Assembly (NCBI RefSeq): GCF_003790525.1
Contig: NZ_CP033635.1
Length of the DNA stretch: 64,000 bases
From: Escherichia coli
GTDB taxonomy: Bacteria > Pseudomonadota > Gammaproteobacteria > Enterobacterales > Enterobacteriaceae
Direction: 5' to 3' (one strand)
Position 1 is the stretch's first letter. Every line of letters begins with the position of its first letter. Below, one piece after another: positions 29,985-39,718 of the stretch. The position numbers and the translations under genes were made by a program. Below the pieces are notes generated by a model. It saw only the letters and a program-made list of their open reading frames with translations, ran no database searches and was not told where the DNA came from.

Positions 29985-30995
29985 ATGTCACTCAAGGCTA
30001 TCGCCGCCGAACTCGGGATCTCTGTCACCACAGTCAGCCGGGCGCTTGGCGGATTTTCGGACGTTTCCGCTTCGACCCGTGCACGTGTAGAAGCGGAAGC
30101 TCGGCGTCGTGGTTATCGCCCGAATACCCTGGCAAGACGTCTCAAAACCGGTAAAACCGATGCGGTCGGCCTGGTCTTCCCTGAACATGCTGTACTGTTC
30201 AGCAGTAGTGTGTTTGTGGATATGGTCAGTTGTATCAGCCGGGAACTGGTCCGCCATGATATTGACTTACTGCTGATAGCCGATGATGAACGGGCTGACA
30301 GCCACAGCTATATGCGTCTGGTCGAAAGCCGCCGGGTTGATGCCCTTATCGTGGCGCACACGATGGATAATGACCCGCGTCTTACACACCTGCAGGAGGC
30401 CGGTATTCCGTTTCTGGCACTCGGTCAGGTGCCGTCCGGTCTTCCCTGTGCCTGGTTTGACTTTGATAACCATGCAGGAACCTGGCAGGCCACACAGCAC
30501 CTGATTGCCCTGGGCCATCAGCGAATTGCCCTGCTGAGTGAGGACAACTCCCGTGCCTATGTCACTGCACGACGTCAGGGATGGCGCGATGCCCTGAGTG
30601 AACATGGTCTGCCTGAGACCTGGCTACGCCGGGTCTCTCCCACCCGACGCTCAGGTTTCCAGGCAGTGACTGAGTTAATGTCACTTCCGCTTCCCCCGAC
30701 GGCCATTATTACCGACAGTGACCTGATCGGTGATGGCGCGGCCATGTCGCTGCAGTTATCCGGTCATCTGTCCGGAGAGGATGCCGTCTCTCTTGTGGTT
30801 TATGATGGTCTGCCGCAGGACAGTATTATTGAACAGGATGTGGCTGCAGTTCTTCAGTCAACACGACATCGCGTCGGTCGTCAGATTGCCGACATGATAC
30901 GCCAGCTGGTCACGAATGTTTCACCTGAAATGCTACAAGTACTCTGGCAGCCGGAATTTCATCCTGGCAAGACAACGCTTGCTCCCTCCGCCTGA
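29985..30995 (+). CDS. rafR: LacI-family repressor, RafR-like
   Basis: 336-aa ORF; N-terminal HTH MSLKAIAAELGISVTTVSRAL; immediately upstream of the alpha-galactosidase gene. Confidence 0.65.
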   Translation: MSLKAIAAELGISVTTVSRALGGFSDVSASTRARVEAEARRRGYRPNTLARRLKTGKTDAVGLVFPEHAVLFSSSVFVDMVSCISRELVRHDIDLLLIADDERADSHSYMRLVESRRVDALIVAHTMDNDPRLTHLQEAGIPFLALGQVPSGLPCAWFDFDNHAGTWQATQHLIALGHQRIALLSEDNSRAYVTARRQGWRDALSEHGLPETWLRRVSPTRRSGFQAVTELMSLPLPPTAIITDSDLIGDGAAMSLQLSGHLSGEDAVSLVVYDGLPQDSIIEQDVAAVLQSTRHRVGRQIADMIRQLVTNVSPEMLQVLWQPEFHPGKTTLAPSA

Positions 30996-31088
30996 TTTTT
31001 AATCCCGCTCACAAATTCGAATCGTTTCGGTTGCTATCCGAAACGATTCGGATCAACAGTAAGGCATACCCGAAAACGGAGATGTCTT

Positions 31089-33215
31089 ATGGAACCGATG
31101 TACCGCAGGCTGACCAGTCCCCACTCAGACCTGATTATTAAAACCCACCCGTATGCAGAGATTGTCTGGTGGGGATCCACCCTGAAACACTTTTCACCGG
31201 ATGACTGTATCAGCCTGGAAAGGCCGGTTGCGAATGGTCGTCTGGATACCGACACCCCACTGACGCTGATGGCCGAAAACGGCGCGGGACTTTTTGGCTC
31301 GCCGGGGCTGGAGGGACACCGCAACGGGCTGGATGCGTCCCCTGTGTTCCGTACCATCAGCGTGGTACAGGCCGGAGAATCACTCACCCTGACCAGTGAG
31401 GATGCAGTGGCGGGTCTGCGCATGGTCAGTGAACTGGTGCTGACATCGTCCGGTGTGCTGAAGATGCGTCATGCCCTGACGAACCTCCGTGAAGGGGACT
31501 GGCAGGTGAACCGCTTCGCCATCACGCTCCCTGTGGCTGAAAGGGCAGAGGAAGTCATGGCCTTCCACGGACGCTGGACTCGTGAGTTTCAGCCGCACAG
31601 GGTCCGTCTCACACATGACGGTTTTGTGCTGGAGAACCGCCGGGGCCGCACGTCCCATGAGCATTTTCCGGCACTGATTGCCGGTGCCCCCGGTTTCTCA
31701 GAACAGCAGGGCGAGGTGTGGGCCGTACATCTGGGCTGGAGTGGCAACCATCGCATGAAATGTGAGGTCAAAACTGACGGACGGCGTTACCTCCAGGCGG
31801 AAGCACTGTGGATGCCCGGAGAAAAAGCCCTGAAGAAGGATGAGACCGTGTACACGCCGTGGCTGTACGCCAGCTATTCCCCGGAGGGGCTCAATGGTAT
31901 GAGTCAGCAGTACCACCGTTTTCTGCGCGATGAAATCATCCGTTTTCCTGAGCAGAAACCCCGTCCGGTGCACCTCAATACCTGGGAAGGTATTTATTTT
32001 GACCACGACCCGAACTACATCATGCAGATGGCCGGACGTGCGGCAGCGCTTGGCGTTGAACGTTTCATTATCGACGACGGCTGGTTTAAGGGACGCAATG
32101 ATGACCATGCGGCTCTGGGCGACTGGTATCTGGATGAACAGAAGTATCCGGACGGACTGATGCCGGTGATTAACCATGTGAAATCACTCGGCATGGAGTT
32201 CGGTATCTGGGTGGAACCGGAAATGATTAACCCGGACTCTGACCTCTTTCGCCGCCATCCTGACTGGGTACTGTCAATGCCGGGGTACACACAACCAACC
32301 GGGAGACATCAGTATGTTCTCAACCTGAACATTCCTGAGGCCTTTGCTTACATTTATGAACGCTGTTTATGGCTGCTGGGCGAACACCCAGTTGACTATG
32401 TGAAATGGGACATGAACCGCGAGCTGGTCCAGGCCGGGCATGAAGGTCGGGCGGCGGCGGACGCGCAGACCCGTCAGTTTTACCGGCTGCTGGATCTCCT
32501 GCGCGAACGTTTTCCCCGTGTTGAGTTTGAGTCCTGCGCTTCCGGCGGTGGACGTATCGACTTTGAGGTTCTGACCCGCACGCACCGCTTCTGGGCTTCT
32601 GACAACAATGACGCCCTGGAGCGCTGCACCATACAGCGTGGCATGAGTTACTTTTTCCCGCCGGAGGTTATGGGGGCACACATCGGTCATCATCGCTGCC
32701 ATGCCACCTTCCGGCAGCACAGCATTGCCTTTCGCGGTCTGACGGCCCTGTTCGGTCATATGGGACTGGAGCTGGATCCGGTAACGGCCGGAGAAGAGGA
32801 ATCCGCCGGTTACCGCCGCTATGCCTCGCTCTACAAAGAATGGCGGCAGCTTATCCACACGGGCACCCTATGGCGGGTGGATATGCCGGATGCGGCGACA
32901 CAGGTGCAGGGGGTGGTCAGCCCGGATCAGTCGCAGGCGCTCTTCCTGGTGAGCCAGCTTGCCATGCCGGATCACACCCTGCCGGGTGCTCTACGTTTTC
33001 CGGGGCTGGCACCACAGGCCCGTTACCGGCTTCGTGTTGTTGACCATCCGGATATTCAGCTGGTCGGTGAAGGCGGGCATACCATGCGCAGGCTGCCCGG
33101 CTGGATGAACCAGACCTCCGACATCAGTGGGGAATGGCTGGCGCAGGCCGGTATTCAGCTTCCCGTACTGGATCCGGAAAGCGCCATGCTGATTGCCCTT
33201 GAACGTTTGGCATAA
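31089..33215 (+). CDS. rafA: Alpha-galactosidase RafA (GH36)
   Basis: 708-aa ORF; GH36 motifs (DDGWF, KWDMN, CASGGGR). Confidence 0.8.
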   Translation: MEPMYRRLTSPHSDLIIKTHPYAEIVWWGSTLKHFSPDDCISLERPVANGRLDTDTPLTLMAENGAGLFGSPGLEGHRNGLDASPVFRTISVVQAGESLTLTSEDAVAGLRMVSELVLTSSGVLKMRHALTNLREGDWQVNRFAITLPVAERAEEVMAFHGRWTREFQPHRVRLTHDGFVLENRRGRTSHEHFPALIAGAPGFSEQQGEVWAVHLGWSGNHRMKCEVKTDGRRYLQAEALWMPGEKALKKDETVYTPWLYASYSPEGLNGMSQQYHRFLRDEIIRFPEQKPRPVHLNTWEGIYFDHDPNYIMQMAGRAAALGVERFIIDDGWFKGRNDDHAALGDWYLDEQKYPDGLMPVINHVKSLGMEFGIWVEPEMINPDSDLFRRHPDWVLSMPGYTQPTGRHQYVLNLNIPEAFAYIYERCLWLLGEHPVDYVKWDMNRELVQAGHEGRAAADAQTRQFYRLLDLLRERFPRVEFESCASGGGRIDFEVLTRTHRFWASDNNDALERCTIQRGMSYFFPPEVMGAHIGHHRCHATFRQHSIAFRGLTALFGHMGLELDPVTAGEEESAGYRRYASLYKEWRQLIHTGTLWRVDMPDAATQVQGVVSPDQSQALFLVSQLAMPDHTLPGALRFPGLAPQARYRLRVVDHPDIQLVGEGGHTMRRLPGWMNQTSDISGEWLAQAGIQLPVLDPESAMLIALERLA

Positions 33216-33269
33216 AAGGACCGGAGCCGGTCACGGCTCCCTGCACTCAGTCCCGTGAGGATAACAATA

Positions 33270-38190: not shown

Positions 38191-39687
38191 ATGAAAAAAC
38201 ACCTTCTCTCGTGTGCCATTCTGCTGGCCTGTTCCCCGGTCTTTGCGGCGGGGAATACCGACAGTATTGAAGCCCGGCTGGCGGCCCTGGAAAAACGGCT
38301 TCAGGATGCTGAAACCCGTGCTCAGAAGGCTGAATCACGGGCAACCGCTACAGAACAGCAGGTGCAGCAACTGGCCGCCACCCCGGCGACACAACCTGTT
38401 GTGCCACAGACCGTATCCGTACCACCGGAAAAGAAAGCGGACAATAGTGGTTTTGAGTTTCACGGCTATGCCCGCTCGGGTCTGCTGATGAACGATGCCG
38501 CATCCGGCAGCAAAAGTGGTCCGTATCTGACGCCTGCCGGAGAGACCGGTGGCTCGGTCGGGCGCCTCGGGAATGAGGGAGACACTTATGTGGAAACCGT
38601 GTTTGAGCACAAAAAGACGCTCGAAAGCGGGGCCACCACCCGGTTTAAGGTGATGCTGGCGGATGGTCAGAAAACCTATAACGACTGGTCGGCGAACTCC
38701 AGTGACCTTAACGTCCGCCAGGTGGTGGCTGAACTGGGAAATCTGCCGGACTTCACCGGGCCGCTGAAGCACAGTACGGTATGGGCGGGTAAACGTTTCG
38801 ATCGTGACAACTTTGATATCCACTGGCTGGACTCGGACGTGGTTTTCCTCGGCGGAACCGGGGGCGGTATCTATGACGTGAAATGGAACGACACTCTGCG
38901 CAGTAACTTCTCCCTGTATGGACGCAATTTCGGGGAGATGGAGGATATCGATAACAACGTCCAGAACTATATCCTTACCATGAACCACTTTGCCGGGCCG
39001 TTCCAGCTTATGGTCAGCGGTATGCGGGCAAAGGATAATGATGACCGCAGGGACAATAATGGCGACCTTATCCATGCCAGTGCCGCCAGCCACGGTGTGC
39101 ATGTGTTGGCCGGACTTCATAATGACAGTTTCTGGGGATTACGTGAGGGAACGGCGAAAATAGCACTTCTGTACGGGCATGGTCTGGGGGCGGAAGTGAA
39201 GGGGATTGGCTCTGACGGTGCACTACGCAGTGATGCGGATACTTGGCGTCTTGCTGCATATGGTACCACCCCGCTCGGAAACGGCTGGCATATCGCCCCG
39301 TCAGTCATGGCGCAGGGCAGTAAGGATCGCTATGCCCGTGGAGACAGTTATGAATGGGTGACCCTGAACACCCGCTTGATTAAGGAGGTGACGCAGAATT
39401 TTGCGCTGGCGTTTGAGGGCACTTACCAGTACATGGATCTGAAACCTGAAGGGTATAAGGACCGCAATGCTGTTAACGGCAGTTTTTACAAGCTGACGTT
39501 TGCGCCCACCCTCAAGGCAGGAGGTCTGGGGGACTTCTTCAGCCGTCCGGAACTGCGTCTGTTCGCCACCTGGATGGACTGGAGCAGCAGACTGGATAAC
39601 TACGCCAGTGATGATGCTTTCGGCGGTAGCGGGTTTAATGCAGGCGGGGAATGGAATTTTGGCGTTCAGATGGAAACCTGGTTCTGA
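38191..39687 (+). CDS. scrY: Sugar-specific outer-membrane porin, ScrY-like (LamB/maltoporin family) with N-terminal coiled-coil extension
   Basis: 498-aa ORF; signal peptide, coiled-coil N-terminus ([23 protein letters not shown]), C-terminal ...ETWF porin ending. Confidence 0.65.
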
Positions 39688-39692
39688 ACACT

Positions 39693-39718
39693 AACGCTCC
39701 CGGTGTACCGGGAGCGTT
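39693..39718 (+). terminator. Hairpin immediately after the porin gene
   Basis: aacgctcccgg-tgta-ccgggagcgtt stem-loop 6 nt after the stop; no clear T-run. Confidence 0.4.

Follow-up and report, generated by a model that had tools for sequence, protein, structure and literature searches.

A raf–scr mosaic gene cluster with an EIIA-Glc paralog, bracketed by insertion sequences, on an Escherichia coli chromosomal island

Results

Gene Content of the Cluster

We analyzed a stretch of 64,000 nucleotides (nt) of an Escherichia coli chromosome (contig NZ_CP033635.1 of assembly GCF_003790525.1; hereafter, the window), which stretch carries between positions 29985 and 39687 a cluster of sugar-utilization genes, all on the + strand, in the order rafR, rafA, rafB, rafD, a gene for a paralog of the glucose-type enzyme IIA (EIIA-Glc, Crr) of the phosphotransferase system (PTS), a DUF2913 pseudogene, a fructokinase gene, and the gene of a ScrY-type porin (Table 1). 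The listing of open reading frames (ORFs), the NCBIfam and Pfam matches, and the PGAP annotation of identical genomes agreed on this content, and every sugar gene aligned end to end with its homologs, the DUF2913 gene being the exception. Remnants of insertion sequences (ISs) flank the cluster on both sides, and its G+C content is 55–61%, versus 34–45% in the island DNA to its left. An earlier reading of this DNA, made without database searches (the sequence-only reading), had listed the same genes, ending at IS remnants, and each was found in the order given. That reading had furthermore described the cluster as a raf/scr hybrid, which description was borne out by the ScrY-type porin in the place of RafY, by an ScrR-type operator, and by an scr-type hairpin after the scrY stop codon. 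The comparison with pRSD2-type raf operons and with scr regulons that it had recommended matched the core to raf and the kinase–porin pair to scr; judged from these alignments, the cluster is a true mosaic of raf and scr parts. As to whether the locus might simply be a standard, previously described raf locus, the module is indeed standard in the sense of being invariant and very widespread, but its gene set is not the canonical one of pRSD2; and our literature searches found no paper describing either the architecture of this module or a raf-linked EIIA clade.

Table 1. Features of the cluster and of its immediate flanks, in window coordinates.
Feature	Position	Strand	Basis
IS2 (IS3-family) remnant	28573–29650	−	PGAP, IS3 family transposase; terminal repeat ...GGGGGCCAGTCTA, ending at 29650, read in the sequence
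rafR, LacI-family repressor	29985–30995	+	LacI-family matches; amino-acid (aa) identity 79–80% to plasmid RafR, 68% to a Klebsiella protein
Two predicted RafR-type operators, TCGAATCGTTTCGG (31017–31030) and CCGAAACGATTCGG (31038–31051)	31017–31051		Sequence reading
rafA, alpha-galactosidase of glycoside hydrolase family 36	31089–33215	+	Pfam Glyco_hydro_36N, Melibiase, Glyco_hydro_36C; 86–87% aa identity to plasmid RafA
rafB, oligosaccharide:H+ symporter of the LacY family (major facilitator superfamily)	33270–34547	+	TIGR00882, 679 bits; 88% aa identity to plasmid RafB
rafD, invertase of glycoside hydrolase family 32	34544–35974	+	TIGR01322, 445 bits; aa identity 83% to plasmid RafD, only 37% to ScrB
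G+C-rich hairpin in the rafD–EIIA intergenic stretch	35984–36004	+	Stem of 9–10 bp
EIIA-Glc paralog, raf-linked, 171 aa	36038–36553	+	NF006962, 235.7 bits (cutoff 212); PF00358
DUF2913 pseudogene, two frameshifted ORFs	36559–37135	+	tblastn versus intact pKpQIL DUF2913
Fructokinase, ScrK/CscK type	37165–38091	+	NF006957, 477 bits
Orphan ScrR-type operator upstream of the porin gene, CTAAATCGATTTAG	38140–38153		Predicted from likeness to canonical scr operators
ScrY-type sucrose porin with N-terminal coiled-coil extension	38191–39687	+	PDB 1A0S, E = 8e-222; Pfam Sugarporin_N and LamB
Hairpin after the scrY stop codon, CGCTCCCGG-TGTA-CCGGGAGCG	39695–39716	+	Alignment with two scrY-scrA loci
IS91-family terminal remnant	39753–39888		About 75% identity to the IS91-family element end on NZ_CP028124; absent from PGAP annotation
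IS1414 (IS256-family) remnant without N-terminus	39889–40717	−	PGAP; other IS1414 copies align to query positions 190–1018
IS3-family element split by a group II intron	40718–44240	+	Rfam ALIL pseudoknot 41052–41168 and Intron_gpII 43695–43781; PGAP

The raf Core and Its Control Region

The DNA of rafRABD is some 80% identical to that of the common plasmid raf operon, which homology ends 37 nt short of the rafD stop codon. The pRSD2-type operon (rafR-rafA-rafB-rafD-rafY) has the first four genes in the same order, with 79–88% aa identity to those of the window, along with a two-operator control region and a terminal porin gene. Upstream of rafA, a −35-like TTGCTA sits between the two predicted RafR-type operators, with a TCACA half-site further upstream; in pRSD2, too, the −35 hexamer of the rafA promoter has a palindromic RafR operator on either side. 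Both palindromes and the spacing between them are kept in four raf lineages. The cluster accordingly has the regulator, the operators, and the A-B-D core enzymes of the raf regulon family, but no RafY-type porin (Porin_8) downstream: the module porin is of the ScrY type, with a LamB fold and a coiled-coil N-terminus, and the EIIA gene, the DUF2913 pseudogene, and the fructokinase gene are additions to the pRSD2 set. Plasmid raf clusters themselves differ 3' of rafD, one (L010, rafRABD-porin) having a RafY-type porin and another (L011, rafRABD-kinase-porin) a fructokinase plus a porin, the latter cluster being without any PTS gene. At the position equivalent to that of the hairpin between rafD and the EIIA gene, hairpin-like sequences occur in Klebsiella and Citrobacter loci.

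The Fructokinase and Porin Genes

The fructokinase is 73% identical at the aa level to the raf-linked kinase of plasmid NZ_CP141865, with which kinase its gene has the leader sequence in common, and 69% identical to ScrK. The porin aligned to the solved structure of Salmonella ScrY over residues 86–498 and has 76% aa identity to canonical plasmid ScrY. The other raf-linked porin tested, that of L011, matches the module porin in the coiled-coil N-terminus only, and the porin of the pRSD2-like, Citrobacter, and Klebsiella raf clusters is of the RafY type. When we searched 5.8 billion proteins for a donor, the closest ScrY outside the module was 78% identical, from Enterobacter mori; a partial match at 86% (P0268) was discarded as a donor, since the identity of its DNA is only 75% and the gene stands in an ordinary scrY-scrA arrangement.

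The likeness to the scrKYABR operons of pUR400, Klebsiella, and Enterobacter consists of the kinase-then-porin pair (69% aa identity for ScrK, 76–78% for ScrY), the ScrR-type operator 5' of scrY, and the hairpin 3' of it. Unlike those operons, the module has no scrA, scrB, or scrR, its porin has one operator rather than two, and its kinase gene has a leader resembling that of the raf-linked kinase, with no operator upstream. The porin operator resembles the canonical scr operators CTAAATCGGTTTAG and CTAAACCGGTTTAG and, in the absence of scrR from the window, would be an orphan. Control by RafR appears unlikely because the operator half-sites differ (CCGAAAC versus CTAAATC); expression of the porin may thus be independent of that repressor.

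The DUF2913 Pseudogene

Between the EIIA gene and the kinase and porin genes stands what had been taken for a possibly frameshifted remnant, which remnant is indeed a single DUF2913 gene: tblastn placed its N-terminal part in frame 1 (36598–36738, aa 6–52) and its C-terminal part in frame 2 (36788–37105, aa 77–186), and with respect to the intact 203-aa gene of the IncFII plasmid pKpQIL about 23 nt are missing, an internal deletion that shifts the frame. The intact gene of pKpQIL is situated close to the repA replication region, next to a gene of the ProQ/FinO family. Because DUF2913 is thus a gene of the IncF-type plasmid backbone, the pseudogene marks a seam in the mosaic, and the module was probably put together on a plasmid. 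Remnants of DUF2913 or of a kinase were looked for 3' of the EIIA gene in the Klebsiella and Citrobacter loci, and none was found. The Klebsiella michiganensis locus has, between the rafD–EIIA pair and rafR, 1.1 kb (8513–9628) without called genes, in which segment neither DUF2913 nor a kinase was matched.

The EIIA-Glc Paralog

We place the start of the EIIA paralog at the ATG at 36038, which codon has an AAGGA ribosome-binding site, rather than at the less likely upstream position 36023 previously proposed. The protein has 59% identity with E. coli Crr and 60–62% with the raf-linked EIIAs of Citrobacter and Klebsiella; among the 5.8 billion proteins searched, its nearest relatives outside the module are 58–66% identical, with no intermediates. 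By comparison, nine housekeeping Crr proteins, from Oceanimonas to E. coli, are mutually 73–97% identical. A search with a three-sequence profile scored five clusters of the raf-linked clade at 302–338 bits, versus at most 267 bits for all housekeeping Crr, and the clade—whose members have a one-residue insertion in common—was recovered in 200 out of 200 bootstrap replicates by neighbor joining. With only five clusters at 90% identity in that entire protein collection, the paralog is rare, so that the sequence-only reading was right to consider it unusual.

Like the housekeeping Crr of ptsHI-crr, the paralog keeps the PTS_EIIA_1 domain (PF00358), His75 and His90, the hydrophobic patch, and the N-terminal amphipathic segment, and it passes the NCBIfam equivalog cutoff; unlike that Crr, it is encoded outside the pts operon, after rafD. 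All three raf-linked paralogs depart from the nine housekeeping Crr proteins at twelve positions that are invariant among the latter, the changes at housekeeping-invariant sites comprising E43G, one inserted residue after 55, K58, E80R/K, D94N/S, E97D, and residues 142–145; several of the altered acidic residues line what we take to be the partner-binding rim. The separate clade, the separate profile scores, the rafD context, and the changed invariant positions set the module EIIA apart from the housekeeping crr, of which gene it is not an ortholog.

In every context that we read—the module, Citrobacter braakii, K. michiganensis, and a metagenome contig—the EIIA gene lies 63–66 nt 3' of rafD. 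The C. braakii and K. michiganensis clusters share with the module not only this position but also the insertion and the signature substitutions; they differ from it, apart from the low EIIA identity, in having a RafY-type porin, no kinase, and another arrangement. No EIIBC gene was present in or beside those raf clusters with an EIIA gene for which we read the flanks, the metagenome contig, of 3.2 kb, being too short to judge. Since the relatives of this EIIA follow rafD directly in raf clusters that have no scr genes, and since in the window the plasmid-derived pseudogene parts it from the kinase and porin genes, the crr paralog is not a leftover of a sucrose PTS. Between Citrobacter and Klebsiella, the ratio of nonsynonymous to synonymous substitution rates (dN/dS) of the EIIA gene is 0.13; between the window and the Salmonella plasmid copy described below it is 0.33, resting on six differences; between these two copies of the module the values for the EIIA, kinase, and porin genes span 0.13–0.39. 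As judged from such ratios, the EIIA gene is under purifying selection.

The Right Boundary

The sequence-only reading had stated that scrA and the scr repressor are lacking and had suggested that they were lost where the IS256-family and IS3-family elements now sit. The lack is real: sensitive tblastn over the whole window found no trace of scrA, scrB, or scrR, the best ScrA match having an E value of 4.9; the ScrB query matched only RafD (37%), and the ScrR query only rafR together with an unrelated LacI-family gene (13572–14555, 26%). The suggested site of the loss, however, did not stand. Homology to scr regulons stops at about 39718, immediately 3' of the hairpin, and is followed by some 30 nt (39719–39748) unlike the scrY-scrA spacer; next comes GTTC (39749–39752), directly before the IS91-family end. 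In NZ_CP028124, the corresponding IS91-family end adjoins the stop codon of its transposase, and the flanks diverge left of GTTC; GTTC/CTTG is the target of the IS91 family. A right edge of the module at 39757, as the end of IS1414, was rejected because IS1414 begins only at 39889, the gap being the IS91-family end.

A nine-gene copy, 99.2% identical, is carried by the IncFII plasmid NZ_CP022492 of Salmonella Saintpaul, its DUF2913 gene being split likewise and its right boundary being that of the E. coli module. Of the IS91 end, that copy retains only the opening 5 nt, after which follows an IS605-type tnpB remnant; IS2, IS1414, and the IS3-family element are all absent from it. Positions 18060–18376 of that plasmid, straight after the 5-nt stub, are taken up by a left-end hairpin of the IS200/IS605 type and by a truncated tnpB. 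A different element thus abuts the same point there as in E. coli, and, because the boundary is shared without IS1414 and the IS3-family element, these two arrived later than the IS91 insertion and the break that follows scrY. On this reading of the junctions, the IS91-family end is the oldest of them, and neither IS1414 nor the IS3-family element removed scrA or scrR.

Distribution and Island Setting

At least 80% of a 12-kb query around the cluster is carried by 183 of 5426 complete E. coli genomes, many with 100% identity. On the left, the IS2 end abuts the module at 29650/29651, and homology to the Salmonella plasmid copy begins at 29651. The unit of IS2, module, and IS1414/IS3 stands between different chromosomal neighbors—the IS2 flank being there in all 10 of the other E. 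coli contexts—and the module is found on plasmids too; it follows from this recurrence in varied contexts that the IS-bracketed unit is what moves.

In the chromosome of the window, the cluster forms part of an island of about 46.5 kb, which island starts beside nfeF at a 48-nt 3' fragment of a tRNA-Ile gene, presumably ileX (20208–20255, − strand), and ends at an intact tRNA-Ile gene beside mug-rpoD, just past the window at about 66.7 kb in its coordinates; within the window, ARAGORN found no tRNA. An integrase gene (20449–21765) lies at the tRNA-fragment end and not at the intact-tRNA end. A stretch of low G+C content (33–37%, 22.5–27 kb) contains an ORF of 534 aa (22574–24178, − strand) that had no PADLOC match and no significant Pfam match, and the small ORFs beside it are likewise without assignment. 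To the right of the cluster, the intron in the IS3-family element contains a reverse transcriptase ORF (42333–43691), in which PGAP marks an internal stop in an identical genome; thereafter come the type I restriction-modification genes hsdM, hsdS, and hsdR (44462–52443), with a DUF4268 gene (48248–49411) between the last two that scores 603 bits against PDC-S11, a PADLOC candidate defense family. An Rfam IS102 RNA match (55988–56224) lies just upstream of, and overlaps the start of, an ORF of 973 aa (56168–59089), at whose position a gene of strain ET474 is annotated as an Ag43/Cah autotransporter; from there to the end of the island runs a typical yeeS-yeeT-yeeU-cbtA module.

The genes that an association study of 2026 (PMC12987596) tied to chicken E. 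coli include hsdR, radC, and a chromosomal "rafY / sucrose porin." Genes of these three kinds are co-located on the present island, which may be the locus behind that signal. Literature searches for a link between raffinose and ileX, or for EIIA paralogs, returned nothing relevant.

Discussion

Given the gene identities, the mosaic structure, and the boundaries described above, we infer the substrates, the operon structure, and the role of the EIIA as follows. The locus is probably a self-contained, IS-bracketed, horizontally mobile mosaic module for the non-PTS catabolism of raffinose and, by extension, of melibiose and sucrose. The sugar would pass the outer membrane through the ScrY-type porin and be taken up by RafB in symport with protons, whereupon RafA would release galactose, RafD would split the resulting sucrose into glucose and fructose, and the fructokinase would phosphorylate the fructose; RafR would repress the rafA promoter through the two conserved operators. 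Such a gene set would make up a complete non-PTS route, so that scrA (the sucrose PTS transporter) and scrR would not be required. The same non-PTS logic is seen in the plasmid variant rafRABD-kinase-porin and in the csc regulon of sucrose-positive E. coli, which likewise relies on a non-PTS permease, an invertase, and a fructokinase; the csc regulon (cscB-cscK-cscA-cscR), compared by gene content, differs in having no alpha-galactosidase, porin, or EIIA, and in its repressor. As to its assembly, a raf core already provided with the rafD-linked EIIA gene would have been joined, with the broken DUF2913 gene at the seam, to a raf-linked kinase and to an scrY cassette, the latter excised, ScrR operator and trailing hairpin included, from an scr operon.

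Several considerations weigh against this interpretation. Transcription of the EIIA and kinase genes could be held down by the pseudogene and by the hairpin that follows rafD, and the porin gene bears a predicted ScrR-type operator that has no cognate repressor at the locus. With respect to the EIIA in particular, the pRSD2-type clusters manage without one, so that raffinose can probably be used without this protein; the substitutions E43G, E80R, D94N, and E97D of the window EIIA, at putative rim residues, could impair partner recognition; dS is saturated between that EIIA and its two relatives; and the neighbor-joining grouping of such fast-evolving sequences could in part reflect long-branch attraction.

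Had the cluster formerly run on as scrY-scrA-scrB-scrR, with insertions at the right end deleting the last three genes, its scr part would be a truncated remnant. The ScrR-type operator and the pre-scrA hairpin on scrY do point to an origin of that gene in an scrYAB-type operon, and the mobile-element ends start 65 nt past the scrY stop codon, about where scrA begins elsewhere (60–67 nt). Yet not even a fragment of scrA, scrB, or scrR was detected in the window; scr homology is over before the IS91 end, with the unrelated 30 nt in between; the boundary predates IS1414 and IS3, being common to the Salmonella plasmid copy that lacks them; no donor with a closer scrY is known than the one at 78%; and kinase-plus-porin tails are present in raf clusters that have no PTS gene. 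We therefore consider a truncation at this site unlikely. A different objection would be that IS-mediated shuffling carried along the genes following rafD (those for EIIA, kinase, and porin) as inert cargo, with no selected function in E. coli, which notion would fit the pseudogene in their midst, the orphaned operator, the sufficiency of pRSD2-type clusters without EIIA and kinase, and the near clonality of the module in E. coli, which would have left little time for decay. Against such inertness stand the reading frames of all three genes, intact despite the decay of the neighboring DUF2913 gene, their dN/dS values between the two diverged copies of the module, and the retention of the EIIA with rafD across genera, again at a low dN/dS; we hold this explanation to be very improbable.

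As for the EIIA itself, its kept catalytic histidines and N-terminal amphipathic helix would be equally in order if the protein were a transport component and not a regulator, namely a protein that serves specifically to pass phosphoryl groups to an EIIBC, be it for sucrose or another; indeed, EIIBCs of the ScrA type have no EIIA of their own and depend on EIIA-Glc. The EIIA-containing raf clusters with flanks read have, nevertheless, no EIIBC gene, the EIIA is linked to rafD and not to scr genes, the pseudogene separates it in the window from the kinase and porin, and the hosts already have the housekeeping Crr, all of which make a donor role improbable. Most likely, to judge from its conserved residues and its context, the EIIA is a functional, phosphorylatable accessory regulator acting via the PTS. 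RafB is among the proteins on which EIIA-Glc is reported to act (Titgemeyer et al., 1994, as cited in PMC4996493). A more specific proposal would make the rafD-linked EIIAs a dedicated regulatory device of raf clusters, coupled to the PTS but with a remodeled partner-binding rim, that either shields RafB from glucose-triggered inducer exclusion or excludes competing permeases; we put this forward as a conjecture only, more apt to be wrong than right by some distance.

The locus is, then, a real, intact, and widespread sugar-utilization module that is for the most part ordinary, in which the EIIA paralog is a modest curiosity, though one that can be tested. Soy-based feed is rich in sugars of the raffinose family, and the exact content, boundaries, and mobility of the module help to interpret host-association signals. 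Mechanistically, the interest lies in the EIIA paralog alone: with RafB as an EIIA-Glc target, an operon-encoded variant of EIIA would be a simple and testable example of inducer exclusion tuned by an acquired module; and, if the conjecture of a dedicated regulatory device were true, a horizontally acquired sugar module would be rewiring the carbon hierarchy of its host.

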